A DNA stretch of 64,000 nucleotides from Bacteroidota bacterium. GTDB taxonomy: Bacteria > Bacteroidota > Ignavibacteria > UBA10030 > UBA8401. The notes under the pieces are model-generated. The model did not search any database. It was not told the origin of the DNA and saw only the letters and a program-made list of their open reading frames with translations. Every line of letters begins with the position of its first letter. Position 1 is the stretch's first letter. The translations under genes were made by a program, and so were the position numbers. The stretch covers positions 6,934-70,933 of the forward strand of contig JAJYOK010000001.1 of NCBI GenBank assembly GCA_021796215.1. Reading direction: 5' to 3'. Shown in pieces: positions 4,691 through 51,643 of the stretch.

Positions 4691-5302
4691 ATGGGAAAAA
4701 GAGATAAGCGGGTAGATACCTATATTGCAAAATCGGCAGATTTTGCCAAACCAATTTTATCTCATCTTCGGGAAGTTGTTCATAAAGGATGTCCCGAGGT
4801 GGAAGAAACGATTAAATGGGGGTTTCCGAACTTTGTGTACAAAGGAATGCTCTGTAATATGGCGGCGTTCAAACAGCATTGCTCGTTCGGTTTCTGGAAG
4901 GCGCCATTGATGAAAGACAAAGCACTGATGGGAAATGCGAAATCTGAAAACGCCATGAGACATTTTGGAAGAATAACATCGCTTGCCGATCTTCCTTCTC
5001 AAAAAGTTTTATTGCACTACATTAAAGAAGCAACGCAATTGAATGAGAGCGGTGCAAAACTTCCTCCCAAAATGAAATCCGAAAAGAAAGAATTAAAAAT
5101 TCCCGATTATTTCAAAAAGGCGCTGAGCAAAAACAAGAAAGCATTGAAGACATTCGAAAGCTTCAGCTATTCCAATAAAAAAGAGTATGTTGAGTGGATA
5201 ACGGAAGCAAAGAGCGAGGAAACACGAGACTCCCGACTGCAAACTGCAATCGAATGGATTGCAGAAGGCAAAGTGCAGAATTGGAAGTACATTAAGATAT
5301 GA
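4691..5302 (+). CDS. YdeI/OmpD-associated (DUF1801) family protein
   Basis: EETIKWGFP, AAFKQHCSFGFW, KEYVEWITEAK..ETR..RL motifs. Confidence 0.88.
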   Translation: MGKRDKRVDTYIAKSADFAKPILSHLREVVHKGCPEVEETIKWGFPNFVYKGMLCNMAAFKQHCSFGFWKAPLMKDKALMGNAKSENAMRHFGRITSLADLPSQKVLLHYIKEATQLNESGAKLPPKMKSEKKELKIPDYFKKALSKNKKALKTFESFSYSNKKEYVEWITEAKSEETRDSRLQTAIEWIAEGKVQNWKYIKI

Positions 5303-5309
5303 GCATTCT

Positions 5310-5381
5310 CACGCAAAGGTACTAAGCCTCAATGAGTTTAATAATTGCTCAGAAACTTTGCGCCATAGCGTCTTTGCGGTT
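5310..5381. repeat. Octamer-periodic inverted-repeat element (CGCAAAGG / CTTTGCGY family)
   Basis: cgcaaagg-tactaagc-ctcaatga ... ctttgcgc-catagcgt-ctttgcgg between convergent genes. Confidence 0.6.
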
Positions 5382-5387
5382 AATTAG

Positions 5388-6233
5388 CTATTGCATTGAA
5401 GAGGATAGCGGTTGTGCCAGCTTCACCTTCAGCCAAAAATCAATCGGCTTTGGCCGCTCGCCGGTTTGCTGACCGTCTCTGCCTCCCCCGTCTCTTTTAA
5501 ATCCGCCGCGTCCTCCTCCGAATCCACCTCTTCCGCCTCCTTCGCCGCCGGGGAATCGTCCGCCGCTTTCACTACGTGGTTGAAATTTTCCAGTTTCAAA
5601 TCCAACGCCGATTGTTTTTTTCGTTGCGTTAATTGCGTACGGAGTTTCCTCCGAAGTGTGAAGCGGTACTTTCATTTCGTAAATAAGATAGTCCTGATAA
5701 TTTTTGATGTACAACTCAATCCCTTTCGCTTCAACCGACGTAAGTTGAATCGGACCGCTTTTCCTTTTGTCAATAATCTCAAGCTGGCTTTCCATTTCCC
5801 GCATCATCTTTTCTCTCTCTTCGGTATTTCCTTCTTGACCTTCTTGCGGCGGTTGAAATTCTCCACGTCCCGCCCGCCCTAACGGAAAATGAATCCCAAA
5901 TGTTTTATCGTCGCCGCCAGCCGGATCGAACCAAACGGTGAAACCTAAACCGAAAAACTGGAACGATTGCTGGCGTGAAGTCGTCTTGAAGATCAGGTAC
6001 ACATCACTGCTGTCGTTGCGAATGCCGACGCTGAACTGCTCATCGGGAAAATAAAATGTGCTGTCATGCCAATCGTTTTCTTTTCCATCAACAGCAATTT
6101 CATGATTATCCCAAGCGCTTCGCACAAGCGTGGTGCTGGAGCAGCCCGAGAAAAAAAGAAGAGCAGAAGTGAAGAAGTTAAAGAAAATGAGTGAGCGCAT
6201 GATGCCGTTCCTTCTAATGTTTGAATAATGCAA
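5388..6233 (-). CDS. Hypothetical lipoprotein with Gly/Arg-rich C-terminal segment
   Basis: 281-aa ORF; lipobox LFFSGC; GGRGGFGGGRGG tract; true start probably the downstream MRSLIFF. Confidence 0.7.
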   Translation of the reverse strand: MHYSNIRRNGIMRSLIFFNFFTSALLFFSGCSSTTLVRSAWDNHEIAVDGKENDWHDSTFYFPDEQFSVGIRNDSSDVYLIFKTTSRQQSFQFFGLGFTVWFDPAGGDDKTFGIHFPLGRAGRGEFQPPQEGQEGNTEEREKMMREMESQLEIIDKRKSGPIQLTSVEAKGIELYIKNYQDYLIYEMKVPLHTSEETPYAINATKKTIGVGFETGKFQPRSESGGRFPGGEGGGRGGFGGGRGGFKRDGGGRDGQQTGERPKPIDFWLKVKLAQPLSSSMQ

Positions 6234-6399
6234 TTAAATATTCTTTGATGGATATTGACATAGAAAGTTTAATCGAACCTTATTTATATTTTCGCTGTTG
6301 AGTTATGTCAAGATTTTCTGTAGAATAAAGACACAACAATCCATTGCAACTTTGCGTCATTGCGATGCATAGCTAAAAACATAACTGCAAGGAGTTCTT

Positions 6400-7935
6400 A
6401 TGAAACATCGCTTAACAGTTCTTTTCATCCTCTTTATCTTCTCATCGTCTCTCTCGCTTCTCGCCGCAGAAAAATCAAAACAAACAAGTGACAGCGCAGC
6501 CGCAGTTATCGAAGAGCCGCCGGTTGTCACACATCATCAGATGATGGTTGACGGAAAACCGCTGAAGTACACCGCGACCACGGGCTACATGGTAATGGAA
6601 GATGAGAACGGGAAAGCGAAGGCGAAAATTTTTTTCATCGCCTACACAAAAGACGGCGTCACCGATCCGGCTAAGCGTCCGATTTGCTTTACATTCAACG
6701 GCGGACCGGGATCATCTTCCGTGTGGCTTCATCTCGGTGCGCTCGGGCCCAAGCGCGTTTTGTTGAAAGATGACGGCGAACCGCTTGCGCCGCCGTACAA
6801 ACTTGTAGACAATGAGTACACATGGCTTGATCAAACCGATCTCGTCTTCATTGATCCTGTTGAAACAGGGTACAGCCGCCCCGCACCAGGCGAAGACAAA
6901 AAGCAATTCACCGGATACAACGAAGATATTCATTCTGTCGGCGAATTTATCCGGCTTTACACAACACGTTACGAGCGGTGGGCTTCGCCGAAATTTCTTG
7001 CCGGAGAAAGCTACGGCACAACACGAGCTGCCGGGCTTTCCGGATATTTGGAAGATCGGTACGGAATGTATCTCAACGGCATTTGTCTTGTGTCGGCAAT
7101 TCTGAATTTTCAGACGGCGGAATTCGCCACCGGCAACGATCTTCCTTACATTTTGTTCCTTCCTTCATACACAGCAACAGCGTGGTATCACAAAAAGCTT
7201 TCGCCGGACTTGGAACAAAATATGCAGAAGGCACTCGACGAGTCGAAACAGTTTGCGCTCGGAGAATATGCTTCTGCTCTGATGCAGGGAGACCAGCTTC
7301 CGAAAGAAGAAGAACAGAAAATTGTGCAGGAACTTTCACGTCTTACCGGACTTTCGCAGCAGTACATTGAAGAAACAAATCTTCGCGTCAACATTTTTCG
7401 GTTCTGTAAAGAGCTGGAGCGGAGTGAGCGCAAGACCGTTGGCAGATATGACAGCCGTTTTGAAGGCATTGACCGCGACGCCGCCGGAGAAACGCCCGAT
7501 TACGATCCGAGTTACGATGCCGGAGTGTATGCGCCGTTCACTGCAACGATCAACGATTATCTGCGGAGAGAGCTGAACTACAAGAACGATATTCCGTATG
7601 AAATTCTGACCGGACGAGTGCAGCCATGGAACTTCAATAACGTGCAGAACGAATATCTGAACGTCGCCGAAACGCTGCGGGATGCGATGACCAAAAATAA
7701 ATTTATGAAGGTGTGGATTGCGAACGGCTATTTCGATCTTGCAACGCCGTTTCTCGCAACGCAGTACACCATCAACACCATGCAGCTCGATCCTTCCGTA
7801 CGGAAAAATATTACGCTCACGTATTACGAGTCCGGACACATGGTGTATATCAACAAACCGTCGCTGGCTCAATTGAAGAAAGATTTTGTGACGTTCCTTG
7901 ATTCGGCATTGCCGGCGCACGATGAAACAAAATGA
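6400..7935 (+). CDS. Serine carboxypeptidase, peptidase S10 family
   Basis: RBS aggag; signal peptide; FNGGPGSSS, GESYG nucleophile motif, GYFDLATP, SGHM. Confidence 0.93.
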   Translation: MKHRLTVLFILFIFSSSLSLLAAEKSKQTSDSAAAVIEEPPVVTHHQMMVDGKPLKYTATTGYMVMEDENGKAKAKIFFIAYTKDGVTDPAKRPICFTFNGGPGSSSVWLHLGALGPKRVLLKDDGEPLAPPYKLVDNEYTWLDQTDLVFIDPVETGYSRPAPGEDKKQFTGYNEDIHSVGEFIRLYTTRYERWASPKFLAGESYGTTRAAGLSGYLEDRYGMYLNGICLVSAILNFQTAEFATGNDLPYILFLPSYTATAWYHKKLSPDLEQNMQKALDESKQFALGEYASALMQGDQLPKEEEQKIVQELSRLTGLSQQYIEETNLRVNIFRFCKELERSERKTVGRYDSRFEGIDRDAAGETPDYDPSYDAGVYAPFTATINDYLRRELNYKNDIPYEILTGRVQPWNFNNVQNEYLNVAETLRDAMTKNKFMKVWIANGYFDLATPFLATQYTINTMQLDPSVRKNITLTYYESGHMVYINKPSLAQLKKDFVTFLDSALPAHDETK

Positions 7936-7937
7936 TA

Positions 7938-8039
7938 GCCATTCCTGAACGTTTTTATCGGGAATCTAATTATCAAAATTAAGTCGATAAAGTTGGATTC
8001 CCACTTTCCTGCCTACCGCAGGCAGGCGCGGGAATGACG
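7938..8039. repeat. REP-like doublet (ATTCC...GGGAAT family) with nested CCTGCCT/AGGCAGG palindrome
   Basis: cattcctga...tcgggaat at left; ggattcccacttt[cctgcctaccgcaggcagg]cgcgggaatgac at right. Confidence 0.65.
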
Positions 8040-8114
8040 ATACTCTGCTGCAGGTAGCAAAAAACCATTTTATGTTATTCCAGTAATTTCACATTGATTT
8101 TTTTGAGGTGATGC

Positions 8115-11100
8115 ATGTTTAAATTCCGACAATTTCTGTTCACAATTTTTTCGCTTGCAGTTTTTTTCTTTCTTGCAATTGCGCAGGAGTTCAATCCGAA
8201 CCTGTATCAAGATATGTGCTGGAGAATGATCGGTCCGTTTCGCGGCGGAAGAACTGTCGGCGCGGCCGGCGTTTCGCAGCAGCCGAATGTGTTTTACATC
8301 GGCGTGAACAACGGCGGGGTGTGGAAGACAAATGACTACGGGCGAACGTGGAAGCCGATCTTCGACAGCGAACCAACCGGTTCCATCGGCACCATTGCAG
8401 TAGCTCCATCGGATCCAAATATCATTTTTGTCGGAAGCGGCGAAGGATTACACCGTCCTGATCTGTCTGTCGGCGATGGCATTTATAAATCCACCGATGC
8501 AGGAAAAACATGGATTCATCTTGGCTTGAGAGACGGACAGCAAATTCCGAAAATTGCCATTGATCAGAAAAATCCTGACCGCATTTTTGCAGCCGTGCTC
8601 GGCCATCCGTACGGACCGAATAAAGAACGTGGAATTTATCGTTCGCTCGACGGAGGAAAAACGTTCGAACAAGTTCTATACAAAGATGTAAACACCGGCG
8701 GCGATGATGTCGCAATTGATCCTTCCGACCCAAACATTGTGTACGCAACGCTGTGGGAAGACCGCGAAGGTCCGTGGGAAAACGGATCATGGAACGGAAC
8801 GAACGGAGGAATTTTCAAATCAACGGACGGCGGAACAACGTGGCGCAAACTTACAAACGGATTGACCGACAGCTTGGTGCAGGCGCACATTGCAATAGCA
8901 CCGAACAATTCCAATATCGTTTACACTGTCATTGCGACGACCAAGGGGAACAACTACGGCACGGGAACAGGAATGGGATTGTACCGTTCCGACGACAAAG
9001 GGGAACATTGGCAAAAAATTTCAAATGACGGCAGAGCCGAAGCGCGTATTGGCGGAGGCGATTTACCGGAGCTTGCAGTTGATCCGAATAATTCGGAAAC
9101 GTTATTCAGCACAAGCATCTCACTTTGGAAATCAACCGACGGCGGAAAAAACTGGAAAGCAATTCGTGGCGCGCCGGGAGGAGACGATTATCAAAATATC
9201 TGGATCAACCCGAACAACCCCGATATTATGCTTGTCACCGCAGACCAGGGAGCGATCATCACCGTGAATGGAGGCGAAACGTGGAGCTCGTGGTACAATC
9301 AACCGACGGCGCAGCTTTATCATGTCGCCGCCGACAATCAGTTTCCGTACAATGTGTACGGCGGACAGCAGGAAAGCGGCTCGGTCGGAATTGCAAGCCG
9401 AGGCAACGACGGCGAGATCACGTTTCGCGAGTGGCATTCTGTTGCGGCGGAAGAATACGCGTACATAGCACCCGACCCGCTTCATCCGAACATTATCTAC
9501 GGCGGAAAAGTAAGCAAATACGACCGCACCACTGGTCAGGTGCAGAACGTTGCGCCGGAAGCGGTACGGTCGGGCAAGTACCGTTTCATCCGAACAATGC
9601 CGATTCTCTTTTCTCCTGTTGACCCGCATATTTTATTTCTCGCGTCAAATGTGCTTTTCAAAACAACGAGCGGCGGAGACAGATGGGAAATTATCAGTCC
9701 TGATCTTTCGCGCGAAAAGCCGAAGGTGCCGGAGAGCGTTGGAATTTTTCACACCGCGCAGCTCGATTCGATGGCGCGGCGCGGAGTCATTTATGCCGTT
9801 GCTCCTTCCAGCAAAGATGTTAATGTGATCTGGGCAGGAACTGATGACGGGCTTGTTCATGTAACATGGGATGGTGGTAAAAAGTGGGACGATGTTACTC
9901 CGAATGAACTTTCATCATGGAGCAAGATTGCACAGATTGACGCCGGACATTTCGACACGCAAACCGCGTACATCGCCGTCAATCGTTTACGTCTCGACGA
10001 TATGCGTCCGCACATTTACCGCACGCACGACGGCGGCAAAACGTGGAAGGAAATTGTACATGGCTTGCCGGACAACGGACCGGTGAACACTGTGCGCGAA
10101 GATCCTGAACGCAAAGGATTGCTTTTTGCCGGGACGGAGCTAGCCGTCTACGTTTCGTTCAACGACGGCGGCGAGTGGCAGCCGCTTCGTCTCAACATGC
10201 CCGCAACTTCCATCCGTGATTTGGTGATTCACGAAAATGATCTTGTAGCGGCTACACACGGCCGCTCGTTCTGGATTCTCGATGATATTACTCCGCTTCG
10301 TCAGATAAATGGAGCCTCCGCACAAGCAAATGCGTTTCTCTTCAAACCTGAAGATGCATACCGCGTGCGATGGGATATGAACACCGACACACCGCTTCCG
10401 CCGGATGAGCCAGCCGGGAAAAACCCGCCGGACGGCGCGATTATTGATTATTCTCTGATGAACGACGCAAAAGAAATTTCGCTCGAAATTTTCGACAGCG
10501 AGGGAAAGCTAGTGAGGAAGTTTTCAAGCAACGATACTGAGAAATCCCAAGGGGATGTTCCAATTGATACGACAACATTGCCTCATCCGACGTACTGGAT
10601 CCGTCCGCCGCAGATTCTTTCTGCGAAATCGGGAATGCAGCGTTTCGTGTGGGATTTGCATTTTGCACCACCGGAAGGAATACCGCGTTCGTACCCGATC
10701 GCCGCGGTTTATCATGACACACCGGGCAGGCCGGTGGGACCGTGGGTGCAGCCCGGTGAATACCTTGTGAAACTCACGGTTGACGGAAAAACATATTCAC
10801 AACCGCTGACGGTAAAAATGGATCCGCGTGTGAAAACAACTCCGGCAGAACTTCATGAACAGTACACGCTTTCAATGAAATGTTATTCCGGGTTAAATCA
10901 ATTATATGCGGCGATAGAAAAAATTCGCTCGCTTCGTCAGCAGGTAAAAACGATACTTGCCCAAGTGAAAGATGAAAATACGAAGAAATCTCAACCTGAG
11001 GCTGATGCGCTTTTGACGCAACTGACGATGCTTTTGAGCCGCGCCGCCGCATTGGAGGGAGGCGAAGCGGAAGGAGATATTGACGTCGTCTATTCCAGTG

Positions 11101-11351
11101 TTGAAACGGCACAGCGCGGAAAGGAAACTCTTTCCGGCTTGCAGACGAAAGAATCATATCTTATGGCATTACTGCAAAGCGCTGACATGAAGCCGACAAC
11201 CCAGGCGGTTGCGGGAGTTGAACAGGTACAGAAATCGCTTGAGGAATTGCTCGGACGATGGAATGAGATTGAGACAAAAGATGTGAAGACTATGAATGAG
11301 CAATTGCGGAGGATGAATCTGAAGAAAATTGTTGTGGAGAGTAACCAATAG
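8115..11351 (+). CDS. Secreted BNR/Asp-box (VPS10/sortilin-like) glycosyl-hydrolase-like protein
   Basis: WRMIGPFRGGR start motif; many SxDGGxTW Asp-boxes; C-terminal DPR plus coiled region. Confidence 0.85.
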   Translation: MFKFRQFLFTIFSLAVFFFLAIAQEFNPNLYQDMCWRMIGPFRGGRTVGAAGVSQQPNVFYIGVNNGGVWKTNDYGRTWKPIFDSEPTGSIGTIAVAPSDPNIIFVGSGEGLHRPDLSVGDGIYKSTDAGKTWIHLGLRDGQQIPKIAIDQKNPDRIFAAVLGHPYGPNKERGIYRSLDGGKTFEQVLYKDVNTGGDDVAIDPSDPNIVYATLWEDREGPWENGSWNGTNGGIFKSTDGGTTWRKLTNGLTDSLVQAHIAIAPNNSNIVYTVIATTKGNNYGTGTGMGLYRSDDKGEHWQKISNDGRAEARIGGGDLPELAVDPNNSETLFSTSISLWKSTDGGKNWKAIRGAPGGDDYQNIWINPNNPDIMLVTADQGAIITVNGGETWSSWYNQPTAQLYHVAADNQFPYNVYGGQQESGSVGIASRGNDGEITFREWHSVAAEEYAYIAPDPLHPNIIYGGKVSKYDRTTGQVQNVAPEAVRSGKYRFIRTMPILFSPVDPHILFLASNVLFKTTSGGDRWEIISPDLSREKPKVPESVGIFHTAQLDSMARRGVIYAVAPSSKDVNVIWAGTDDGLVHVTWDGGKKWDDVTPNELSSWSKIAQIDAGHFDTQTAYIAVNRLRLDDMRPHIYRTHDGGKTWKEIVHGLPDNGPVNTVREDPERKGLLFAGTELAVYVSFNDGGEWQPLRLNMPATSIRDLVIHENDLVAATHGRSFWILDDITPLRQINGASAQANAFLFKPEDAYRVRWDMNTDTPLPPDEPAGKNPPDGAIIDYSLMNDAKEISLEIFDSEGKLVRKFSSNDTEKSQGDVPIDTTTLPHPTYWIRPPQILSAKSGMQRFVWDLHFAPPEGIPRSYPIAAVYHDTPGRPVGPWVQPGEYLVKLTVDGKTYSQPLTVKMDPRVKTTPAELHEQYTLSMKCYSGLNQLYAAIEKIRSLRQQVKTILAQVKDENTKKSQPEADALLTQLTMLLSRAAALEGGEAEGDIDVVYSSVETAQRGKETLSGLQTKESYLMALLQSADMKPTTQAVAGVEQVQKSLEELLGRWNEIETKDVKTMNEQLRRMNLKKIVVESNQ

Positions 11352-11372
11352 TCTGAAGTTGAACAAAGTGAA

Positions 11373-11395
11373 ATCCCGCCGCTTTTCGGCGGGAT
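11373..11395. terminator. GC-rich hairpin followed by heptamer repeats (terminator or REP-like)
   Basis: atcccgccg-ctttt-cggcgggat just after stop; followed by cagaagt-cagaggc-cggaagt-cagaatt rather than a U-tract. Confidence 0.45.
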
Positions 11396-11426
11396 CAGAA
11401 GTCAGAGGCCGGAAGTCAGAATTTGA

Positions 11427-12791
11427 ATGAGATACATATATTTTCTTGCTGGAATTTTTCTCCTTCACTGCGTCGCTGATGCGCAAGACAGCACTTTTAT
11501 TCGCGGAGCGGACATCTCTGCCGCGCAGCAAATTGAAAACGCCGGTGGCGTGTGGAAGCTGAACGGCAGTCCGCACGATCTGCTCGATATTTTTAAGCAA
11601 AGCGGCGCAAACTATATTCGGCTTCGCCTTTGGCACTCCCCGTCAGATGGCTACTGCGGCTTGGATTCGACCGCAACGTTTGCCGAAAAAGTTAAAGCCG
11701 AGGGGTTCAAATTTCTTCTTGATATTCATTACTCCGATACGTGGGCGGATCCGGGACATCAAACAAAACCGGCGGCATGGGCAAATCTTTCATTCGCTGA
11801 TTTGACTGATAGCGTTTACTCGTACACGAAAAATGTCATTACCGTTCTGAAAGCTCACAACGCAATTCCGGATATGGTGCAAATCGGAAATGAAATAACT
11901 AGTGGAATGTTATGGCCCGACGGCAAGCTCAACGGTTCCACCGGCTGGAGCAATTTTGCCGCACTTTTGAAAGCGGGCATTCAAGGCGTGAAGGATGTTG
12001 ATACGACAATTCGCATTATGATTCACATTGACAAAGGAGGAGACAATTCCGCCAGCAGGTGGTTCTTTGATAATCTAACGGCGCAGGGAGTCAGCTTTGA
12101 TGTTATCGGTCTGTCGTATTATCCATGGTGGCAGGGAACATTGCCGGCACTTCAAAATAATATGAACGATCTGGCTGTCCGCTACAACAAAAAGATTGTC
12201 GTTGCAGAAACAGCATATCCGTGGACGTTAGGCTGGAACGACAACGCGGCAAACATTGTCGGAGATTCCAGCCAGCTTCTGCCGGATTATCCGGCCACAG
12301 TGGACGGACAAAGAAATTTTCTTTACAGTCTCATCCAAACAGTTTCAAGTATTCCGGGTAATAACGGTATGGGATTTTTTTATTGGGAGCCGGATTGGAT
12401 TTCAGCTTCTCAGTTCGGCTCTCCGTGGGAGAATGTAACGCTGTTTGATTTTTCGGGAGAGGCGTTAAATTCCATTTCGGTTTTTAATTCAACACCTGTC
12501 GGTGTATTGTCCTCGAGCGCATCGCCTCATTCATTCAGCTTATATCAGAATTATCCGAATCCGTTCAACCCCAGCACGAATATCGAATACAGAATACCGA
12601 ACACGGAATTTGTTACGCTTGAAGTGTACGATGTTTTAGGAAGAGAAGTTGCTGCACTTGTGAACGAGAGAAAATTGCCGGGGACGTATGATGTTGAATG
12701 GAATGCGAGCAGTCTTTCAAGCGGCGTCTATTTTTATCGCTTGCAGGCAGGAAGTTTTACGGAAACAAAAAAATTGCTGTTGATTAAGTAA
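11427..12791 (+). CDS. Arabinogalactan endo-beta-1,4-galactanase (GH53) with T9SS C-terminal sorting domain
   Basis: GADIS, IRLRLW, DIHYSDTWADPGHQ, VQIGNE, SYYPWW, AETAYP, FYWEP; C-terminal QNYPNPFNPST...GVYFYRL...TKK. Confidence 0.93.
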   Translation: MRYIYFLAGIFLLHCVADAQDSTFIRGADISAAQQIENAGGVWKLNGSPHDLLDIFKQSGANYIRLRLWHSPSDGYCGLDSTATFAEKVKAEGFKFLLDIHYSDTWADPGHQTKPAAWANLSFADLTDSVYSYTKNVITVLKAHNAIPDMVQIGNEITSGMLWPDGKLNGSTGWSNFAALLKAGIQGVKDVDTTIRIMIHIDKGGDNSASRWFFDNLTAQGVSFDVIGLSYYPWWQGTLPALQNNMNDLAVRYNKKIVVAETAYPWTLGWNDNAANIVGDSSQLLPDYPATVDGQRNFLYSLIQTVSSIPGNNGMGFFYWEPDWISASQFGSPWENVTLFDFSGEALNSISVFNSTPVGVLSSSASPHSFSLYQNYPNPFNPSTNIEYRIPNTEFVTLEVYDVLGREVAALVNERKLPGTYDVEWNASSLSSGVYFYRLQAGSFTETKKLLLIK

Positions 12792-12925
12792 AAAGCAGCT
12801 AATTCTGGCAAAAAGGCTGTTTTCAATCAAAAAGACCACTTTCGCCGCCAGAAAAATGAGTTTCGTTGTCAGGAAAATGAGTAATGCCAACCGGAATTGG
12901 AGGATGTTTAACTCATTTTTTTGGC

Positions 12926-13034
12926 TTGACCTTCGGGAATGTTTTATTTACTTTGGGTGCAGTCAATTCTATTGACGGCTGTTCGCCGCAGCGTGAGTTG
13001 ATTTTTTTGAGAGGACGGCGAAACAGTCCCTTAC
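12926..13034 (+). repeat. 109-bp direct repeat copy 1: sigma70-like promoter plus structured leader / candidate ncRNA
   Basis: TTGACC-17bp-TACTTT, then hairpin gtcaat/attgac and stem ggctgttcgccg/cggcgaaacagtc; 104/109 identical to 13664-13772. Confidence 0.8.
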
Positions 13035-13072
13035 TTTTTACTAGGGGCGGAGTTTTACTTTTACAACACTCA

Positions 13073-13597
13073 ATGATTAAAGCAACCCATTCACTTATTC
13101 CAACAGATCGAATTGAACAGCGCATCTATTTTCTGCGCGGCGAGAAGGTCATGCTTAGCACAGACCTTGCCAGTCTATATCAAGTGGCGCCGCGTGTGCT
13201 GGTGCAGGCGGTAAAAAGAAACACCGAACGTTTTCCAAAAGATTTCATGTTTCAACTGACAAAGGATGAGTTTCTGAACTTGAAATCACAGATTGTGACT
13301 TCAAGATGGGGCGGTTTACGCAGGGCAACACCTTATGCATTTACTGAGCAGGGTGTTGCAATGCTGTCCAGCATTCTGAGAAGTAAACGGGCTGTTCGGG
13401 TGAATATCGAGATCATGCGGGCATTTGTACGCTTGCGTAAACTGCTTGCCTCTAATGAAGAACTCGCGCACAAACTTGAGCTGCTGGAGAAGAAATACGA
13501 TGCTCAGTTTAAGGTTGTGTTTGAAGCAATTAGGGAACTTATGACTCCTCCGGAGCCGAAGCGCCGGCCTATCGGTTTTGGCAGAGAAAGCGAGTAA
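13073..13597 (+). CDS. ORF6N domain DNA-binding protein (antirepressor-associated family)
   Basis: [48 protein letters not shown], terminal RPIGF; the ORF-track N-terminal extension is translated repeat. Confidence 0.92.
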
Positions 13598-13663
13598 CAG
13601 ATATTTTGAGTGAGGGCGGTTTTCCACGACAAGGCAGCCACGCTTTTAATGTGGTTTTTTAAT

Positions 13664-13772
13664 TTGACCTTCGGGAATGTTCTATTTACTTTGGATACAG
13701 TCAATTCTATTGACGGCTGTTCGCCGCAGCGCGAGTTGATTTTTTTGAGAGGACGGCGAGACAGTCCCTTAC
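13664..13772 (+). repeat. 109-bp direct repeat copy 2
   Basis: Same length as copy 1 with 5 substitutions. Confidence 0.8.
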
Positions 13773-13960
13773 CGAATACAGGAGCTGCGTGGAAAAGAGT
13801 TTTCACACCAAAAAATGATCACACAAAAAAGAAATAGACGCACCTGTCCACCACGCCGTCTGGTGGATGCGTTTAGCACACCAGATTTTGGTTGATAGAC
13901 GAACATGTGCGGTGAGCAAAGAGTTAAGCGCAATGTTACCTCCATCGAAAGGAGAAGTTC

Positions 13961-14470
13961 GTGAGTTTAGGTTATGTTGAAGAATTGGCAGTTCGCTATT
14001 TCCGTAAGAAAGGATATTTGGTCCATACCAATATCTGGTTCCAACTGAAAAAGGAGCGCACAAAGAAGAAGGTGGCTGGTTGGTCTGATATTGATATGCT
14101 TGCTCTCTCAAAGAACGATGCCTTGATCGTTCAATGCAAGAGTTTTCTCGGCACAAAGAAATCAGAGAGTATTGTCAAGGAACTCATTGCTTGGTTCAAG
14201 AATGCTGAAGATTATCTAGAGACCGATTCACATTGGAAGCAGTGGATCGAAAGACGCACTCTCAAGCGATGTTTAGTAGTCGACATTTCCGTGAAGAAAA
14301 CGGAAACGGGGTTAAAGAACGAGAACGTCGAAGTAGTTCATTACACCTCTTTGCTGACTGATTTAATAGATATGCTTAAAACCTCTGAAATCAGAAAAGG
14401 CAAAGAAGACGACCCTATCATCAGGCTTCTTTGTGCGCTGATTGATAAAAAATTGCTCAAGAAAAAATGA
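13961..14470 (+). CDS. Integron cassette gene: PD-(D/E)XK restriction-endonuclease-like protein
   Basis: RBS ggag; E..A..YF..KGY, SDIDMLA, LIVQCKS; preceded by core site GTTAAGC (13923) and followed by attC. Confidence 0.7.
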   Translation: MSLGYVEELAVRYFRKKGYLVHTNIWFQLKKERTKKKVAGWSDIDMLALSKNDALIVQCKSFLGTKKSESIVKELIAWFKNAEDYLETDSHWKQWIERRTLKRCLVVDISVKKTETGLKNENVEVVHYTSLLTDLIDMLKTSEIRKGKEDDPIIRLLCALIDKKLLKKK

Positions 14471-14489
14471 TTGCAGTCGGCAACACTGC

Positions 14490-14623
14490 GGCTAACACGG
14501 CAAACAACGACGCTCCATTTATGATTGAAGGAAATTATAGTTGTCGCTCACTGCTTTTGCTCAGGGAGAATTTGTCGTTTGAGGGTTCGCAAAAGCAATG
14601 CGTTGTTCGCCGAAACGTTATGC
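14490..14623 (+). mobile_element. attC recombination site (integron cassette 1)
   Basis: R'' GGCTAAC ... R' GTTATGC; inner arms cggcaaacaacg / cgttgttcgccg pair 11/12. Confidence 0.75.
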
Positions 14624-14657
14624 ACAAGCACGCGCCTTCAATCAGTGAGGTCCAGAC

Positions 14658-15104
14658 ATGGAATCAATAGCGGTGAAATTAACCAGCTCTCAATTCAGCA
14701 AGTTGAATTCACTATTCAACCAATCAGGCAAAAGTGCCGACGTTGGCAAGCGAGCGGTCGAGATTGTCAAGATCTACTTTATGAGTAAAAACCCAAGATG
14801 TACTTTTCCGGTCCCACCATCAGGAGTGGACCTCGTTGTGCAAGAAAATCGCAGTCGAAAGAAATTGGAGATAAAGGGCACCTCTGAGTTAAATATTGCG
14901 TGGGGCAAACTAGGGGTTTCTGGTTGTCCATCTTTTGACAAGTTAAAGAAGGGAATGCCACTCTACCGAGTGACTGGAGTGTTTGAGGAAACTCCACAGA
15001 TTTATGTGTTGCGATTCAAGAAGGATTTCAGAATGCAGAAGGAACCGAGATGGAGAATTGTCCAAACAACGAGCAATAAACAAGAGCCGCGTACTTGCGC
15101 ATAA
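14658..15104 (+). CDS. Integron cassette gene: PD-(D/E)XK nuclease-like protein (DUF3883/NO VEIN-like)
   Basis: GKRAVEIV, SGVDLVV, LEIKGT motifs; TAA stop lies inside R'' of the following attC. Confidence 0.65.
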   Translation: MESIAVKLTSSQFSKLNSLFNQSGKSADVGKRAVEIVKIYFMSKNPRCTFPVPPSGVDLVVQENRSRKKLEIKGTSELNIAWGKLGVSGCPSFDKLKKGMPLYRVTGVFEETPQIYVLRFKKDFRMQKEPRWRIVQTTSNKQEPRTCA

Positions 15105-15195
15105 CAAGCGGGACAAAGGCGCTCGTCATTTTTATATGTCGAACTCGCTTCATTGCGTTCGCCCGCATCGACTTCTTCCCGACGAGACGTTATGC
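15099..15195 (+). mobile_element. attC recombination site (integron cassette 2)
   Basis: R'' GCATAAC and R' GTTATGC perfectly complementary; cggga/tcccg inner arms; cassette start gttatgcacaag matches reverse complement of its end cttgcgcataac 11/12. Confidence 0.8.
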
Positions 15196-15233
15196 GTCAC
15201 TGTTTCTCACTCATCATCTAAGAAGGAGAACTT

Positions 15234-15584
15234 ATGAACTGTCCATCGTGTAATCAGTTGGCTACTTCATTTCTGCGAAATACATTTTCACGTCAGGGCG
15301 TTTCCATCACCCAATCAGCAAAGGGATATCTCAAATGCCAGCATTGCGGAACGCTTCTGCGCATTACGGGCTTTGGCAAACAATTTTGGTATTACTTTAC
15401 CGGAACATTTATCGTGTTAGCGGCATTCGCGCTTTTGTACCGGCGGCTGATGGAAACTGCGGGGACCGGAGCAACCGCGGCGATCTGGATTGTGATTGTG
15501 CTGGGGGTAATGTTCGTTGTTACTTTCGGCCTCTGGAAGAATGCGCAGGTTGAAAAGGTTGACGAAGGCGCGCCGGCAAAGTGA
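15234..15584 (+). CDS. Small membrane protein with Zn-ribbon (CxxC...CxxC); possibly a third, attC-less cassette
   Basis: RBS aggag; CPSC and CQHC; two TM helices. Confidence 0.7.
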   Translation: MNCPSCNQLATSFLRNTFSRQGVSITQSAKGYLKCQHCGTLLRITGFGKQFWYYFTGTFIVLAAFALLYRRLMETAGTGATAAIWIVIVLGVMFVVTFGLWKNAQVEKVDEGAPAK

Positions 15585-15655
15585 GCTTTCACGTCTTCGC
15601 GTCTTTGCGTGAGAGAGATTTAATTCTGCAGGTACATACTAAAGGAGAACGAACC

Positions 15656-15865
15656 ATGAACATTAAAAAATATTCGATTGACTTCGCGCTGACATTCGTT
15701 GTCGTGCTTGTTGTCAGCATCATTGTTACTTTCCTTTACAGTCTGATTGCGCACGGTGAGGGTGCTGTTGACTGGGAGACAGCCTTTCGTCTGGCGATCA
15801 TCCTTGGAATTGTGCTGCCGTGGGTGCATCTCCGCGAGCAGAAGAATAAAGCAACGATGCCTTAA
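15656..15865 (+). CDS. Small two-TM hypothetical protein
   Basis: RBS aaggag upstream of ATG 15656; two hydrophobic helices. Confidence 0.7.
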   Translation: MNIKKYSIDFALTFVVVLVVSIIVTFLYSLIAHGEGAVDWETAFRLAIILGIVLPWVHLREQKNKATMP

Positions 15866-15878
15866 TTGTTGTGGTTAG

Positions 15879-16259
15879 ATGAACGAGAAGATGATGAAAA
15901 TAAGTGAAGAAAGTTTTGAAGAGTTAAGAAAGCTTGAAGAATCGCTCTATGTTACAAAGACACGTTTCGACTCCGCTTATGTAAGCCGCATTTTTGCACC
16001 GGGCTTTTTTGAGTTCGGCAAATCGGGAAGAATATACACGCGCGAAGAAGCTCTTGCCGCGCCTTCGCATGAAATTAACGCACAGCTTCCGCTGAAGAAT
16101 TTTAAAGTTCATCCCGTCACGAATGATATCGTGCTTGTAACGTATGTAAGTGAAGTGCAATCCGACACGCTTGAAGTGACAAACAGAAGCTCACTCTGGA
16201 TGCGAACGCGGAACGGATGGCAATTGCAGTTTCATCAGGGGACGCCGGTGCGAAAGTAG
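15879..16259 (+). CDS. DUF4440 / NTF2-like protein
   Basis: FFEFGKSGRIYTR, RSSLW, WQLQFHQGT. Confidence 0.88.
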   Translation: MNEKMMKISEESFEELRKLEESLYVTKTRFDSAYVSRIFAPGFFEFGKSGRIYTREEALAAPSHEINAQLPLKNFKVHPVTNDIVLVTYVSEVQSDTLEVTNRSSLWMRTRNGWQLQFHQGTPVRK

Positions 16260-16339
16260 AGTCGCCTGTGCTGTTTAGCATAAAGAGATTTATGTTAAAA
16301 TGGTTTGGTAATTTTCGTATGTTGAGCCTCTAAATGTAA

Positions 16340-16363
16340 CGTTCCCAACTGAGCTTGGGAACG
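16340..16363. repeat. REP-like palindrome (CGTTCCCA...TGGGAACG)
   Basis: cgttcccaa-ctgagc-ttgggaacg followed by agataa. Confidence 0.7.
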
Positions 16364-16387
16364 AGATAAAAAGCCAAGTGGAAGAGA

Positions 16388-17013
16388 ATGACTGCAAAGG
16401 AGATTATTCAAGGGAACATTAACAGAGTAGCAGAAACCCATTTTATTCTCCGCTCTGTGCTTGTTAGTGCTCTAAAGAATCAAATCACACTGAAGAGGGC
16501 AAAAGGTTTCTTAATGGTGCAAGCACCTACTATGAATATTGGACGAGAAGTTTAAGTGATAAATTTTACGATATGGGCACGCTTGTTCGGCTTGGAACAG
16601 AAATAGAAAATGCCCTCAAATATTACTACATGGAAAAGAAAGATTATCGAGACTTAATTGATTTGAAAAGGGATATTAATTTCGAAAAGAACATCTTTCA
16701 AAGAATAATGCCTTGGACACAAAACAATGTGTTGGATTTGTATAAAGTTCAATTGAATATTGACCTGCACAACAATTCCAAATTGAAAAATATTCAGGAA
16801 CTAATGCTTTGCAGACATTTGTACGCACATAATTCAGGACTGTTGAATGACGATTTTATAAGTAAGTACCAACGACTAACAGATGTAGATGTCACCAAAT
16901 TGCCAAACATTGCGGCTATTTATCCCGCAAACGACACTTACTATTTTAGTCCATTAAATAAACTTGATAATTTCATTGAGGATTGCCGAAACTTTATTAG
17001 GCAGTTACCATAA
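16388..17013 (+). pseudogene. Frameshifted HEPN-like (Rx4H) protein
   Basis: ATG 16388 frame stops near 16555; the frame of the 16573 ORF is open from 16468; AT-rich; C-terminal part has RHLYAHNSG. Confidence 0.55.
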
Positions 17014-17034
17014 CAGGTGGAGAAAATATTTTAT

Positions 17035-17122
17035 CTCGCTCCCACATTCTGCGTGGAAGTGAATGCGAGACGCTCAACGTTGAAAAAACCTTGAAACGTT
17101 CCCACGCCGGAGCGTGGGAACG
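17035..17122. repeat. REP doublet (REPIN-like)
   Basis: Degenerate ctcgctcccac..gtggaagtga plus perfect cgttcccacgc-cgga-gcgtgggaacg followed by agataa. Confidence 0.65.
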
Positions 17123-17187
17123 AGATAACGGCGTGCGGGAATGACAGTTTTGAGAGAGCACCGAGTAGTTACCAACATGGAAGAAAT

Positions 17188-18750
17188 ATGAAAAAGTTCA
17201 GCTACGGTTTCATCAAGGAACACAAATATCTTTTTCTTATCGCTTCGCTCAACTTCGTGCTTATCTATGCATCATCGTTTGTAAAAGCGTACGGTTATTT
17301 CATTGACGAGTTCTATTATATCGCGTGCGCCGCGAGGCCCGCGTTCGGGTACGTTGACCATCCTCCGTTAGCTCCGTTTATTCTTACGGCGTTTTCGTTT
17401 TTCTTCGGCACGTCGCTTCTTGCCATAAGAATTTTGCCGGCACTGGCGCAATCTGCTTCTGTGTTCTATACCGGAATGCTGGCAAAAGAAATCGGCGGCG
17501 GGAGATTTGCGCAGTGTCTCGCCGCATGCGCCATGGCAGCCTCGCCGGTGATTGTGGCATTCGGCGCATTTTATTCTATGAACGCATACGAGCCGCTGCT
17601 TGCAATTGTGCTTCTGATTTTTACAGTGAGAATGATAAAAGAAAATAATCCTCAGCGGTGGGTTGTGCTCGGCATTATCATGGGCTTGGGGATGATGAAC
17701 AAACATACGTTTGCGGTTTTTATTGCCGGGCTGGTTTTTTCTCTGCTTATGACCGGGCAATGGAGACTTGTTTTCAATAAATGGTTTGCCGCCGGTTCGC
17801 TGATCGCGCTTTTCATCTTCTTGCCGAACATTTTGTGGCAAGTGCAGAACAATTATCCTTCGCTTGAGTTCTATAGAAATATCAGCGCGCACAAAAATGT
17901 TTACACTCCGCCGCTCACCTTCTTTGAAAATCAGGTAATGGAAATGTCTCCTTCTTCTTTTCCGATCTGGTGTGCAGGGATAATATTTTTATTCTTCTCC
18001 AAAAGTGTGAAGAGCTGCAAATTTCTTGCGGCACTGTTTTTAAGCCTGTTCCTTTTTATGATGATTTCGGGGTCAAGCCGTCCGGACAGGCTGATGTTCG
18101 CGTATCCCGCGGTTTTTGCCGGCGGCGGTTTCTTTTTCGAACGCTTCATACTCAAGCACAACGCGCGGTGGCTGAAAGCGGCGCTGATAGTTTTCCTGTA
18201 TGCCGGACTTGCAATCGGAGTGCCCGTGATCCTTCCGTACTTTACTTATGAACAAGTGCGTTCGTACACAAAATTTCTGGGATTGAACACAGAGCTTGAA
18301 ACAGGAAATAAACCGCCTCTTCCACAGATTCTTGCGGACAGAATAGGGTGGAAGGAAAAATTCAATCTGGTTCTCAACGCGTATCAAAGTCTGCCGGATT
18401 CGGAAAAAGCGAAGACAATAATTGCGGCTGAAAATTACGGGCAGGCGGGCGCGCTTGAGCTTTACGGCAAGAAATATGATTTTCCTTTCGTTGCATCAGG
18501 GCATAACACGTATTATTTGTGGAGCAAAGAAAAATTAGAAAGTGGTACGGATTTTAAGATTCTTCTTCAATTGGGGTATGAAAGAGATTTGAGCGGATTG
18601 AAAAATGTTTTTGATAGTGTTGAAGTGTATCCGGGAGAGTTTACAAACGAGTACGTTACGTCGCACGAAAACCATCTTAAAGTTTTTATTTGCCGCGGAC
18701 CCAAAATTCCGCCTTTGGAAATGTTGGAAAGAGGAAGGTTTTATTATTAA
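17188..18750 (+). CDS. GT39/PMT_2-like integral membrane glycosyltransferase
   Basis: DEFYY, GYVDHPPL, about 11 TM helices, NYGQAGA and SGHN motifs. Confidence 0.88.
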   Translation: MKKFSYGFIKEHKYLFLIASLNFVLIYASSFVKAYGYFIDEFYYIACAARPAFGYVDHPPLAPFILTAFSFFFGTSLLAIRILPALAQSASVFYTGMLAKEIGGGRFAQCLAACAMAASPVIVAFGAFYSMNAYEPLLAIVLLIFTVRMIKENNPQRWVVLGIIMGLGMMNKHTFAVFIAGLVFSLLMTGQWRLVFNKWFAAGSLIALFIFLPNILWQVQNNYPSLEFYRNISAHKNVYTPPLTFFENQVMEMSPSSFPIWCAGIIFLFFSKSVKSCKFLAALFLSLFLFMMISGSSRPDRLMFAYPAVFAGGGFFFERFILKHNARWLKAALIVFLYAGLAIGVPVILPYFTYEQVRSYTKFLGLNTELETGNKPPLPQILADRIGWKEKFNLVLNAYQSLPDSEKAKTIIAAENYGQAGALELYGKKYDFPFVASGHNTYYLWSKEKLESGTDFKILLQLGYERDLSGLKNVFDSVEVYPGEFTNEYVTSHENHLKVFICRGPKIPPLEMLERGRFYY

Positions 18751-18772
18751 TTGATGTTACGCAGAAACCTTC

Positions 18773-18913
18773 TTTCAATAGCCACGACATTTATGTCGTG
18801 GAAAAAGAAGCTACCCCCTCTCGGGGCTTTAGCCCAAAACAGTATGATTTCGGCTAAAGCCGACTTTGGTTTGGCATATTCCACCCACGGCCTGAAGGTC
18901 GTGGCAATAGAAA
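18773..18913. repeat. REPIN-like nested palindrome (GCCACG / GGCTTTAGCC family)
   Basis: ccacgacat-tt-atgtcgtgg; ggctttagcc...ggctaaagcc; ccacggcc-tgaa-ggtcgtgg; outer ends complementary. Confidence 0.7.
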
Positions 18914-19171
18914 ATCTATCTTTGCGTACCATCACTTATTAAGTCGTGTTACACACACGCTCCCTGTCACTTCTGAAGGAATTCGAGTACGATCGGCGGG
19001 TACATTTGGGACGGAACGAGGGGATGTTTTGATTTGTTTTGTCGGGTAACATACCATTCATGAGTTGCATTGCCGGACATGATTTGAGAAGTTTATCCGC
19101 CGCTCCATGCGGTTTCATGTGCCTGCACGCATCGTTATTATTGACGGTTTACAGCAAAACTAAGGAGAAAC

Positions 19172-20509
19172 ATGATTCTTCAAAACTGGTGGTTCACGAC
19201 GCTGCTTGGAATAAAAGATCCGATTCAACCGCCGCTTCAAAAAGATATCAAAGCGGATATTCTTATTGTGGGTGCAGGCGCTGCCGGTCTTTCGGCTGCC
19301 TACTCTTTGATGAACAAAGGAGTGAAGGTTGTATTGATCGAGAAAAATATTTGCGGCGGCAGTTCTTCGGGCAAAAGTGCCGGTTTTCTCACCCCCGATA
19401 GCGAGCTGGAATTATCCCAGCTTATCCGGAGATACGGAAAAGCAGATGCCGCTGATTTGTGGGGAGTCGCTACCAAAGGAGTGGAGATGATGGTGGCGCA
19501 CATTACCCGGCACAACATCAATTGTGATTTTCAGGTGCAGGATTGTTTGTTTCTCGGGAATGGTGAAAGCGGTTGGGAAGATATTCAGGAAGAAATGAAA
19601 GCCCGAAAAATGCTCGGCTTTGCCCAGACTCTCTACGACAGGAATGAAGTGAAAAAAATAATCGGCTCTGAAAGTTATTCCGGAGGCGTCAGATATCCGG
19701 ATACATATGGCGTGAACGCTTTGTTGTATTCACAGGGAATGAAAAAGATATTGTTGGAAAACGGAATTGAAATTTATGAAGCATCGGAAGTTTTGTCCGT
19801 ACACGAACATCGTGCAGAGACACATCTTGGTTCTGTCACTGCCGACCAGATAATTTTCTGCGCTGATAAATTGCACTCTTCGGTAACGCAGCTTGCCGAC
19901 AGCATCTATCATGCACAAACGTTTCTTTCGATCAGCGAGCCGCTCAGTGAAAGTATGATAGAAAAAATTTTTCCTGCCGGAAGGTTTCAATGCTGGGATT
20001 CGGATCTCGTATACAGTTATTACCGTTTGACGGGAGACAACCGGATACTGCTTGGCGGCGGAGATATGCTCACTACTTTTTCAGTGAACGATGTCAATTC
20101 ATCGCGCGTGATTGATGCGGTGATTGAAAAATTCAGGAAGAAATTTCCTCTTCTTAGCGATCTTAAATTCATTCAATATTGGCCCGGCAGAATTGATACC
20201 ACAAGAGATCTGATACCGACCATCGTTCGGGAAGAAGCCAAACCGTGGATACATTTCGTTTTGGGGTGTGTCGGCTTGCCATGGGCAACTTTTTGCGGCG
20301 ATTTTGCTGCCCGCCACGCCTACGATGACAAAGGCTGCACCGATCATCATTATTATGAGTACTTCCGCGCAGACAGACATTTTTTCATACCGTTATGGAT
20401 GGAAAAGTTTTTGGGGAAACGAATAGTCTTTTCGTTGAACAACGGCTGGGCAAAATATTATCAAAAGGAAACACCGGACGATGCCGGCGCAAAAGCATAT
20501 CGTTCCTAA
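19172..20509 (+). CDS. FAD-dependent oxidoreductase (DAO/PuuB-like)
   Basis: RBS aggag; GAGAAG Rossmann motif; GGSSSGKSAG; YYRLTGDNRILLGG. Confidence 0.87.
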   Translation: MILQNWWFTTLLGIKDPIQPPLQKDIKADILIVGAGAAGLSAAYSLMNKGVKVVLIEKNICGGSSSGKSAGFLTPDSELELSQLIRRYGKADAADLWGVATKGVEMMVAHITRHNINCDFQVQDCLFLGNGESGWEDIQEEMKARKMLGFAQTLYDRNEVKKIIGSESYSGGVRYPDTYGVNALLYSQGMKKILLENGIEIYEASEVLSVHEHRAETHLGSVTADQIIFCADKLHSSVTQLADSIYHAQTFLSISEPLSESMIEKIFPAGRFQCWDSDLVYSYYRLTGDNRILLGGGDMLTTFSVNDVNSSRVIDAVIEKFRKKFPLLSDLKFIQYWPGRIDTTRDLIPTIVREEAKPWIHFVLGCVGLPWATFCGDFAARHAYDDKGCTDHHYYEYFRADRHFFIPLWMEKFLGKRIVFSLNNGWAKYYQKETPDDAGAKAYRS

Positions 20510-20596
20510 GCAAAAGCACATGCGGCGCGGTGTGTGATGAAGAAATTCCTGCATTCGTAATTCATAACCGGTGGAACCGTTGATATCGCCCATTTC

Positions 20597-20625
20597 TTGA
20601 CTCTCTTGCCATTTCGCCTTATATT
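20597..20625 (+). promoter_or_regulatory. Putative sigma70-type promoter
   Basis: TTGACT-17bp-TATATT upstream of the M16 peptidase gene. Confidence 0.5.
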
Positions 20626-20689
20626 ATTGAAGTTTTTGTTCCGAAGGAATCCCTTTGGGAAATGAAATTGAACAGTAAATTCACAATAA

Positions 20690-22006
20690 ATGTCCCACAG
20701 AGCACGAACTTCTCCACCGCAAAACATTTCAATTGTAGCGCGAAAAACACCATCTTTGACTTACCGAAAGACGACTCTCAATAATAGTATCAGAGTTGTC
20801 AGCGAAGAAATTCCTCATGTAAAATCTGTTACCATCGGTGTGTGGATTGATACCGGTTCCCGCAATGAAAACGACACCACCAACGGCATTTCCCATTTTT
20901 TGGAACACATGGTTTTTAAGGGAACCGAACACCGCTCCACGCAGGCAATCGCTCGCAGTCTGGAGTCGGTTGGCGGCTACATGAATGCGTTCACATCGAA
21001 AGAGCATACATGTTTTTATGCCCGCGTGCTGGATGCGCATGTGGAAAAAGCTGTGGATGTGCTTTCCGATCTTCTTCAGTATCCGACATTTCCCGAAAAA
21101 GAAATTGAAAAAGAAAAACAGGTTGTGCTTGAAGAGATCAAGAATGTTGAAGATGATCCCGACGATTTGATTCACGATGTGTTTGAAGAAAACATTTACG
21201 CCCCGGGCCCGTTGAAATATCCGGTGATCGGAACAGCGAAAAATGTCTCGACATTTACACGCGACGATCTATTCCGTTATGTGAAAACGCATTATACGAA
21301 CGACCGCATGGTTATTGCGGCGGCAGGAAATATTGCGCACGAGAAGTTGGTGAGCCTTATTGAAAAATATTTTGTGCTGATGCGCCGCGTTTCGAATCGG
21401 CAGATAACCACATCCCGCGTTCAGTCTGTACGCGGGCATGCAAAAGGAAAGATGATTGAAGTTCCGAAACCGATTCAACAAGCGCATGTATGCAGCGGAA
21501 CGGTGGCGTTCAGTATTCACAGCAAGCACCGCTACCCGTCACTGGTACTGAACACATTGTTAGGCGATGGAATGAGCTCGCGATTATTTCAAAATATCCG
21601 TGAGAAGTTCGGATACGCCTATTCCGTTTATTCATTTCTTAATCTTTTGAGCAATACCGGTTCGTTCGGTGTGTATGTCGGAACGGATAAAAAGCATATT
21701 GCACACTGTCTTGATTTAGTGCGGGCGGAGTTTTTAAAACTGAAACAAAAGCCGATTTCAGCGGCTGAGTTGAAACGCACAAAAGAGCAATTGAAAGGAA
21801 GTATGCTGCTCGGACTGGAAAGCACATCGAATCGGATGATGCGGCTTGGGAGCGGCGAATTGTATTTCGGAGAATTCACAACGCTTGATGCTATCGCGCG
21901 GCACATTGATTCTGTTACTGTCAGCGAAGTATCGGAAGCGGCAGCGCTGTTGTTCCGTGAAGAGCAATTCTCAACTATTATTTTTTCACCAGATGTACCT
22001 AATTAA
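20690..22006 (+). CDS. M16 (pitrilysin) family zinc peptidase
   Basis: HFLEH inverted Zn motif; NAFTSKE; GMSSRLFQ.IRE. Confidence 0.93.
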   Translation: MSHRARTSPPQNISIVARKTPSLTYRKTTLNNSIRVVSEEIPHVKSVTIGVWIDTGSRNENDTTNGISHFLEHMVFKGTEHRSTQAIARSLESVGGYMNAFTSKEHTCFYARVLDAHVEKAVDVLSDLLQYPTFPEKEIEKEKQVVLEEIKNVEDDPDDLIHDVFEENIYAPGPLKYPVIGTAKNVSTFTRDDLFRYVKTHYTNDRMVIAAAGNIAHEKLVSLIEKYFVLMRRVSNRQITTSRVQSVRGHAKGKMIEVPKPIQQAHVCSGTVAFSIHSKHRYPSLVLNTLLGDGMSSRLFQNIREKFGYAYSVYSFLNLLSNTGSFGVYVGTDKKHIAHCLDLVRAEFLKLKQKPISAAELKRTKEQLKGSMLLGLESTSNRMMRLGSGELYFGEFTTLDAIARHIDSVTVSEVSEAAALLFREEQFSTIIFSPDVPN

Positions 22007-22036
22007 CTTTTTAATGAAAAAACTTGCGAGACTATT

Positions 22037-23152: not shown

Positions 23153-23232
23153 GTAAAAAATCAGAAAGCTATCCGATTTGCTTTTGAGCGATCGGATAGC
23201 TGATTCAATTGTGAAGCGAGTGAAGAGAATTT

Positions 23233-24918: not shown

Positions 24919-24945
24919 TTTTTTTCTTCTGTCGGGAAAATAGAA

Positions 24946-32668: not shown

Positions 32669-32737
32669 AACCAATTTTTGAGAGTGAGTGGGAGATGGAA
32701 AATGGAAGATGAACAATTCCATCAATCCAACAACCCA

Positions 32738-51079: not shown

Positions 51080-51080
51080 A

Positions 51081-51626: not shown

Positions 51627-51643
51627 TTGCCAAAGGAGATTGT

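Follow-up and report, generated by a model that had tools for sequence, protein, structure and literature searches.

Organisation of the locus

The locus reported here lies within a 64-kb window (64,000 nucleotides, the whole stretch of DNA that was analysed) of a Bacteroidota genome assembly (G000 below; 3.37 Mb, 44 contigs, listed as 100% complete). It comprises a stand-alone ORF6N gene of 174 aa (13073..13597) between two copies of a 109-bp unit, followed by an attI-type site and a series of small cassette-like genes, all read on the forward strand. Copy 1 (12926-13034) and copy 2 (13664-13772) are direct repeats with a period of 738, identical at 104 of 109 positions and differing at 12944, 12957, 12959, 12994 and 13022, and TTGACC-17-TACTTT forms the first bases of both; re-alignment thus confirmed the twin arrangement described in an earlier note on this DNA. 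The window holds no other repeat pair of this kind, a third full copy is absent from the 3.37-Mb assembly, and the unit had no match in viral contigs, phage records or plasmid records.

Two separable parts make up the unit, a promoter-like first 29-37 bases and a 74-base leader. The predicted promoters (12926..12954 and 13664..13692; -35 TTGACC, 17 nt, -10 TACTTT) look like the housekeeping promoter type of this genome, since the hexamer pair is enriched about twofold genome-wide at the 17-base spacing (216 sites versus 89-122 at other spacings); their activity is inferred, and a generic sigma-70 scan did not list the promoter of copy 2. The promoter part alone occurs at five sites in G000, six in the sister species (G001) and three in a further genome, G002, with the reversed pattern giving 1, 1 and 0. 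At several of these loci, including G000:C36 and C20, tandem repeats with a 21-base period lie upstream of the promoter; two copies of this repeat are present at 12840-12882, many more at G002:C5 (locus L085), and they are deleted in G001.

A hairpin and T-run after a GH53 gene (12873..12921, fold -11.4 kcal/mol) is likely to be a terminator insulating copy 1; it is missing from the output of the consensus terminator scan, and its 5′ half is deleted in the sister species. A second terminator-like hairpin with a T-run, in the gap between the ORF6N gene and copy 2 (13636..13663), was both reported by the scan and recovered by folding. As such hairpins precede both copies, two separate transcription units are predicted. 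A longer frame of 237 aa opening at 12884 was rejected as the ORF6N gene, not being kept in the sister species. Elsewhere we noted 32-base inverted repeats 486 bases apart at 51079-51628 of the window, built from a purine-rich 14-base unit that recurs at 32689 and 47833, and at G000:C11:68000-70300 a CRISPR-like array whose repeat is about 47 bases long.

In the sister species the arrangement recurs, 93% identical over 901 bases and with different DNA after the attI-type site, so the repeat is neither an assembly artefact nor a strain-level event, and contigs from a sequencing run of a second study (X3) cover both copies and carry sister-like variants. Among the sequencing runs listed as holding this sequence none was from RNA, which has no bearing on whether the locus is expressed. 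The counter-case named in the earlier note, only a single local duplication, therefore largely describes what is found, except that the duplication is older than the split between the two species. Within the 109 bases no position tells the two copies apart consistently across both species, whereas the DNA just outside does. Beyond the unit a weaker similarity between the copies continues for about 40 bases and reaches the start codon of ORF6N (its score is equalled by 6 of 500 shuffles); these bases are only weakly alike between copies, yet are conserved between species.

A predicted cassette array with an attI-type site

The site downstream of copy 2 (13826..13929) is of the attI type that belongs to co-oriented (inverted) integrons, with a 24-base palindromic insertion and a predicted crossover G/TT at 13923. 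A search with a profile trained on five other sites, the window site not among them, recovered it at E 1.7e-10. These sites are homologous up to GTT, after which each locus has DNA of its own, as an attI would; in keeping with this, the first cassette after the site in the sister species is not that of the window. A 76-base portion is shared with G000:C36 and G001:C63, where a promoter of the same family stands directly before the attI-type site, in the position homologous to that of copy 2, without the leader. By profile, the site lies directly behind a co-oriented integrase gene at 11 of 30 loci and at none on reversed sequences, and at G001:C264 it can be seen by eye to follow the 3′ end of a co-oriented tyrosine recombinase gene. 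Relatives of this recombinase occur in 84 of 277 genomes of the order, where attI starts at or near the stop codon (loci L239-L268).

Two cassettes are well defined. The first (13961..14623) carries a 169-aa ORF, with NERD/Mrr_cat nuclease matches that are weak and below cut-off, and an attC at 14490-14623; the second (14658..15195) carries a 148-aa ORF without a Pfam match and an attC at 15099-15195. Both attC sites were identified from inspection of the core sites together with the bottom-strand fold, the fold z-scores being -1.7 and -1.5. Further small cassette-like ORFs and a probable attC at 17008-17174 extend the series to 17174 from 15234, by inspection only.

An integron integrase was sought in G000 by two routes: no TIGR02249 match exceeded the cut-off, and the co-oriented type was not found at E 1e-60. 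The classical divergent intI was considered as a partner and rejected; it is present in 32 of 54 genomes of the family, but its attI is different, and no intact copy was found in G000-G002. Given an attI-type site, two attC sites and no integrase found in G000, the locus is, as judged from its sequence, an inverted-type cassette array that has an attI but no integrase. Copy 2 points into the attI-type site and the attC cassettes, and can serve as their promoter (predicted Pc), a proposal of the earlier note that stands as a prediction.

Several observations touch on the wider integron complement of these genomes. G000 contains four orphan attI-type sites (C36:58173-58247, C34:202998-203071, C16:3808-3890 and the window), with differing upstream DNA; this lineage keeps several promoter-plus-attI platforms without an integrase in the assembly; the site on C16 seems, by eye, to follow a remnant of an integrase 3′ end. 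At locus L233 (G001:C264) the co-oriented integrase gene is broken by a short ORF between inverted repeats, with a weak match to a group I intron endonuclease, and locus L237 (G002:C9) has a truncated classical intI with its own attI, then methyltransferase-like cassette genes. On the piece tested, the co-oriented integrase family falls below the TIGR02249 cut-off, and standard integron searches may miss it.

The ORF6N gene and its relatives

The product of the ORF6N gene matches PF10543 (E 1e-32) and three models of the PADLOC candidate system PDC-S05 (best E 1.8e-56, residues 7-161), and it covers profile positions 7-128 of 268, the N-terminal half, of the phage anti-repressor family PHROG 4792. 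With that match only partial and no prophage genes among the listed neighbours (positions 5000-25000 hold chromosomal enzymes and cassettes), identity as a phage anti-repressor was not supported. A sequence search found no solved structure for the protein.

We compared the locus with a set of 118 ORF6N loci drawn from three collections (80 + 30 + 8). Flanks resembling the 109-bp unit were seen at two of them, the window and the sister species. Direct repeats as such are more widespread. After removal of 10 multi-copy loci, 11 with short flanks, two duplicates and the two home loci, 14 of the remaining 93 ORF6N genes are bracketed by direct repeats of 32-267 bases, compared with none of 600 cross pairs and 6 of 155 shifted windows (p 0.003). 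In an own-genome control 14 of 885 genes were bracketed, three of which are CRISPR pseudo-ORFs; this control missed the ORF6N gene of the window itself, whose ORF had been called from 12884 and so took in copy 1. The 14 repeats are unrelated in sequence, the best score being 22 among themselves and 24 against the 109-bp unit. Judged by eye, they comprise the 3′ ends of genes, the 5′ end of one gene, the end of a tRNA and some promoter regions; among the genes are what we take from their translations to be hsdM and carB. Some (at L121, L140 and L222) look like dispersed repeat elements and not target duplications, and 79 of the 93 genes have no flanking repeat, among them that of an 85% identical relative (L197). 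Four of the 118 loci resemble attC cassettes. Separately, other small accessory genes in G000, some of them PIN-like by eye, are bracketed by 60-85-base duplications of the ends of neighbouring genes or tRNAs (G000:C5:87366, C6:82208, C37:24956, C23:4220 and C36:98507).

A second family-wide feature lies inside the coding sequence. The ORF6N gene of the window contains a palindrome with 11-bp arms, one mismatch and a 3-nt centre (13280..13304), and a near-perfect palindrome occurs at the same coding position in 103 of 104 distinct ORF6N genes (the 118 loci, including L115-L224 and eight earlier ones, minus 12 without anchors and two duplicates). Its mean score is 12.0, against 4.2 after synonymous recoding, and it changes symmetrically, with amino-acid changes, so that it covaries across the family. 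In one exceptional locus the palindrome is read in another frame, and several loci hold tandem copies. At L085 (G002:C5), about 90 bases after the promoter, an ORF6N-like start codon is followed at once by one palindrome arm, as seen by eye; this may possibly be the remnant of a deleted ORF6N gene. At the level of titles and abstract openings, our literature search returned no description of the palindrome or of the excess of flanking repeats for ORF6N. It is these two features, a covarying coding palindrome and an excess of flanking target duplications, that are likely to surprise specialists, and both reach well beyond the present window.

A probable long target duplication

The explanation that we consider probable is that the twin repeats are a target duplication, formed when the ORF6N gene inserted into the predicted promoter-leader of the integrase-less cassette array. 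The locus has the repeats and the insert expected of an insertion with long target duplication: direct repeats of 109 bp, which exceeds 30 bp, at a 738-bp period that puts the insert far below 20 kb, with only the ORF6N gene inside and no mobility gene. Donor DNA carrying ORF6N together with a related promoter-leader would have recombined with the resident promoter-leader inside the shared 109 bases. Such a crossover would be expected to leave copies that are inseparable within the unit and roughly 40 bases beyond it that are weakly alike yet conserved, as seen here; conversion between the copies is the alternative to a crossover. Copy 1 would then transcribe ORF6N while copy 2 went on transcribing the cassettes, so that the insertion would have cost the array nothing. 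The leader hairpin would be an ordinary 5′ stem-loop of both transcripts, probably stabilising and not released as a small RNA, and recombination between the copies could excise the gene as a circle or raise its copy number. DNA contigs contained no junction from which the 738-base unit was missing, but since they break within the repeat they would not have revealed one.

We did not find the exact empty allele, and G002 has partial empty states: there the ortholog of the GH53 gene is followed by a single related promoter without leader or attI, and G002:C5 has the same upstream DNA and a single promoter copy without the ORF6N gene. The resident state has consequently been pieced together from paralogous sites.

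The missing empty allele, and the weak similarity that reaches up to the ORF6N start codon, also speak for a different order of events, in which a local tandem duplication preceded the arrival of ORF6N between its copies, or in which a resident gene was joined later by attI. We regard this as highly improbable, since it fails to explain why unrelated repeats flank other ORF6N genes at a frequency far above controls.

The leader and alternative explanations

The leaders extend from the predicted +1 of each promoter (copy 1, 12961..13034; copy 2, 13699..13772) and comprise a 6-bp inverted repeat (12962-12976 and 13700-13714) followed, in copy 1, by an interrupted stem at 12977-13028. The two species contribute two copies each, and in every one of these four the 74 nt starting at the predicted +1 have a minimum-energy fold that includes the long stem, at z-scores of -2.0 to -3.1, whereas wider windows of 101-109 nt are unremarkable (-0.6 to -1.7). 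All four differences among the four copies keep the fold, two being unpaired and two one-sided wobbles. The A/G at 13022, described in the earlier note as a stem substitution preserved as U-G, is a bulged unpaired base in the minimum-energy register, and the U-G pair holds in an alternative register. Of 148 leader positions, 4 differ between the species, whereas the non-coding DNA alongside differs at 27 of 285 (p 0.0097) and four-fold sites at 12-17% (9 of 75 in ORF6N). Because it has fewer interspecies differences than either class of site, the leader is, on these counts, under selection or conversion and more than a neutral scar. The hairpin that had been proposed is thus plausible, with z from -2 to -3 and conservation beyond its flanks at p about 0.01, and we read it as a modest 5′ leader hairpin.

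Single-copy homologs of the leader stand before the same attI-type site at G000:C34 and G002:C90, with a different promoter and without ORF6N; the alignment of these distant homologs scores 64 against 54 for the best of 300 shuffles. Both show a 7-bp stem of partly different sequence with a similar loop, although the register is ambiguous and needs indels, and neither folds better than shuffles (z 0.1 and 0.4). Strong BLAST matches of a 76-nt leader query were confined to two of 277 genomes of the order; seven weak matches beyond G000 and G001 all lay inside ORFs and were set down to chance, and the same search also missed the true distant homologs in G000 and G002. A covariance model, which the earlier note had proposed building from BLAST matches, recovered only its six training sequences, placing the leader in 3 of 55 genomes of the family and in one genus. 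A gapped stem pattern gave 21 matches in metagenome contigs, all inside ORFs of GC-rich contigs. The Infernal search against Rfam, likewise suggested there, returned no family on the 109-bp unit in gathering-score or E-value mode and no gathering-score match in the window; of four weak matches in 12800-13960, none was c4 and none covered the leader.

Other readings of the leader were tried and rejected. A remnant of the 5′ end of an integrase gene was not supported, as an integrase 5′-codon profile had no match on five leaders and a leader profile had no real match upstream of 32 integrase genes, and a leader peptide was dismissed, because the leader of copy 1 offers no ATG ahead of the start of ORF6N and the long upstream frame is not conserved.

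The conservation, the persistence of the fold and the shared stem and loop of the distant homologs would all suit a functional regulatory RNA (an attenuator, a protein-binding leader or a small RNA) that belongs to integron platforms independently of ORF6N, the duplication having put ORF6N under the control of the cassettes. We hold this to be possible but unlikely. None of the 24 pairs is altered on both sides among the four near-identical copies, 500 of 500 shuffles reach the observed score and shuffles equal every measure; the lack of two-sided changes also counts against the new RNA proposed in the earlier note. The leader is absent from platforms of the same type at G000:C36 and G001:C63 and is replaced by a different one at G003:C116, its range is a single genus, and gene conversion between the copies could yield the same conservation.

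A more ambitious reading would join the features of this locus to those of the family. Stand-alone ORF6N would be a minimal, integrase-free mobile unit, and its coding palindrome, which is kept symmetric across phyla despite an amino-acid cost, would act in cis, by self-binding or as a cruciform, to drive insertion with long target duplication; at the present locus the gene would have hijacked the promoter of an orphan array, with a selected leader hairpin co-regulating a defence gene and the cassettes. As a whole we think this conjunction rather improbable.

The inverted repeat at the transcript starts invites a third explanation. Spanning +2 to +16 of both predicted promoters, this 15-base element occurs nowhere else in the genome and its arms are invariant in the four copies, and the ORF6N product matches phage anti-repressor families, so that ORF6N might be a repressor that binds at each start and controls both itself and the cassette array. 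This strikes us as quite improbable: the element lies upstream of only 2 of the 118 ORF6N loci (the window and the sister species) and is missing even from 80-85% identical relatives, the symmetric element that the family does share is the coding palindrome, which has a different sequence, and the left arm of the inverted repeat is missing in single-copy leaders, which is why it may be a junction product.

The model of the earlier note, in which an antisense RNA of the c4 kind evolves and travels together with an ORF6N antirepressor, can appeal to a structured leader of about 74 nt beside a gene of the anti-repressor families, and is largely refuted and scarcely tenable, since none of the other 116 ORF6N loci has the unit in its flanks and homologs of the unit occur without ORF6N, Rfam gives no match, the leader folds as two helices in series and not as three stem-loops, it is complementary to the leader and coding sequence of ORF6N over 7 nt at most (shuffle mean 7.3), the listed neighbours include no prophage genes, and phage records, plasmid records and viral contigs gave no match. 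We return to the insertion with long target duplication, under which the twin unit would be a local scar, confined to one genus, from a type of insertion already known, and no new RNA family.

Comparison with known systems

According to PMC5320573, the c4 antisense RNA that phages P1 and P7 produce is about 75 nt long, has three stem-loops whose a′ and b′ loops pair to the message, and is processed by RNase P to roughly 77 nt. The leader of the window shares with it a length of about 75 nt, a structured character and a position upstream of an anti-repressor-type gene, but differs in lacking an Rfam match, three stem-loops, a loop complementary to the message and a phage context.

For PDC-S05, PMC12881386 reports that one representative cut plating of T7 and T5 about 1,000-fold in E. 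coli. The tested protein carried a Virulence_RhuM domain, whereas that of the window, while matching the models of the system, is of the ORF6N type, and its part in defence is no more than possible.

Insertion with long target duplication has been described for restriction-modification genes (Furuta, Abe and Kobayashi 2010, PMC2853133). The present locus shares with the class a short insert, the lack of a mobility gene and direct repeats of more than 30 bp that differ in sequence from case to case. That paper took in loci with a cargo of restriction plus modification genes, a rule that leaves out the present one, which carries ORF6N alone; the duplicated target here is, in addition, the predicted promoter-leader of a cassette array, and the search for the exact empty allele yielded none.

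Cury et al. (2016, PMC4889954) use the name CALIN for attC clusters without an integron integrase, and also mention an inverted integrase group. The window array agrees with that definition in having two or more attC sites and no integron integrase found. In contrast to a CALIN so defined, it keeps an attI-type site and a predicted Pc, four such orphan sites being present in the genome, and a non-cassette gene, with a promoter copy to itself, precedes its attI. If the insertion took place as we propose, the locus would illustrate a way for an accessory gene to be added to an integron ahead of attI without cost to the expression of the cassettes.
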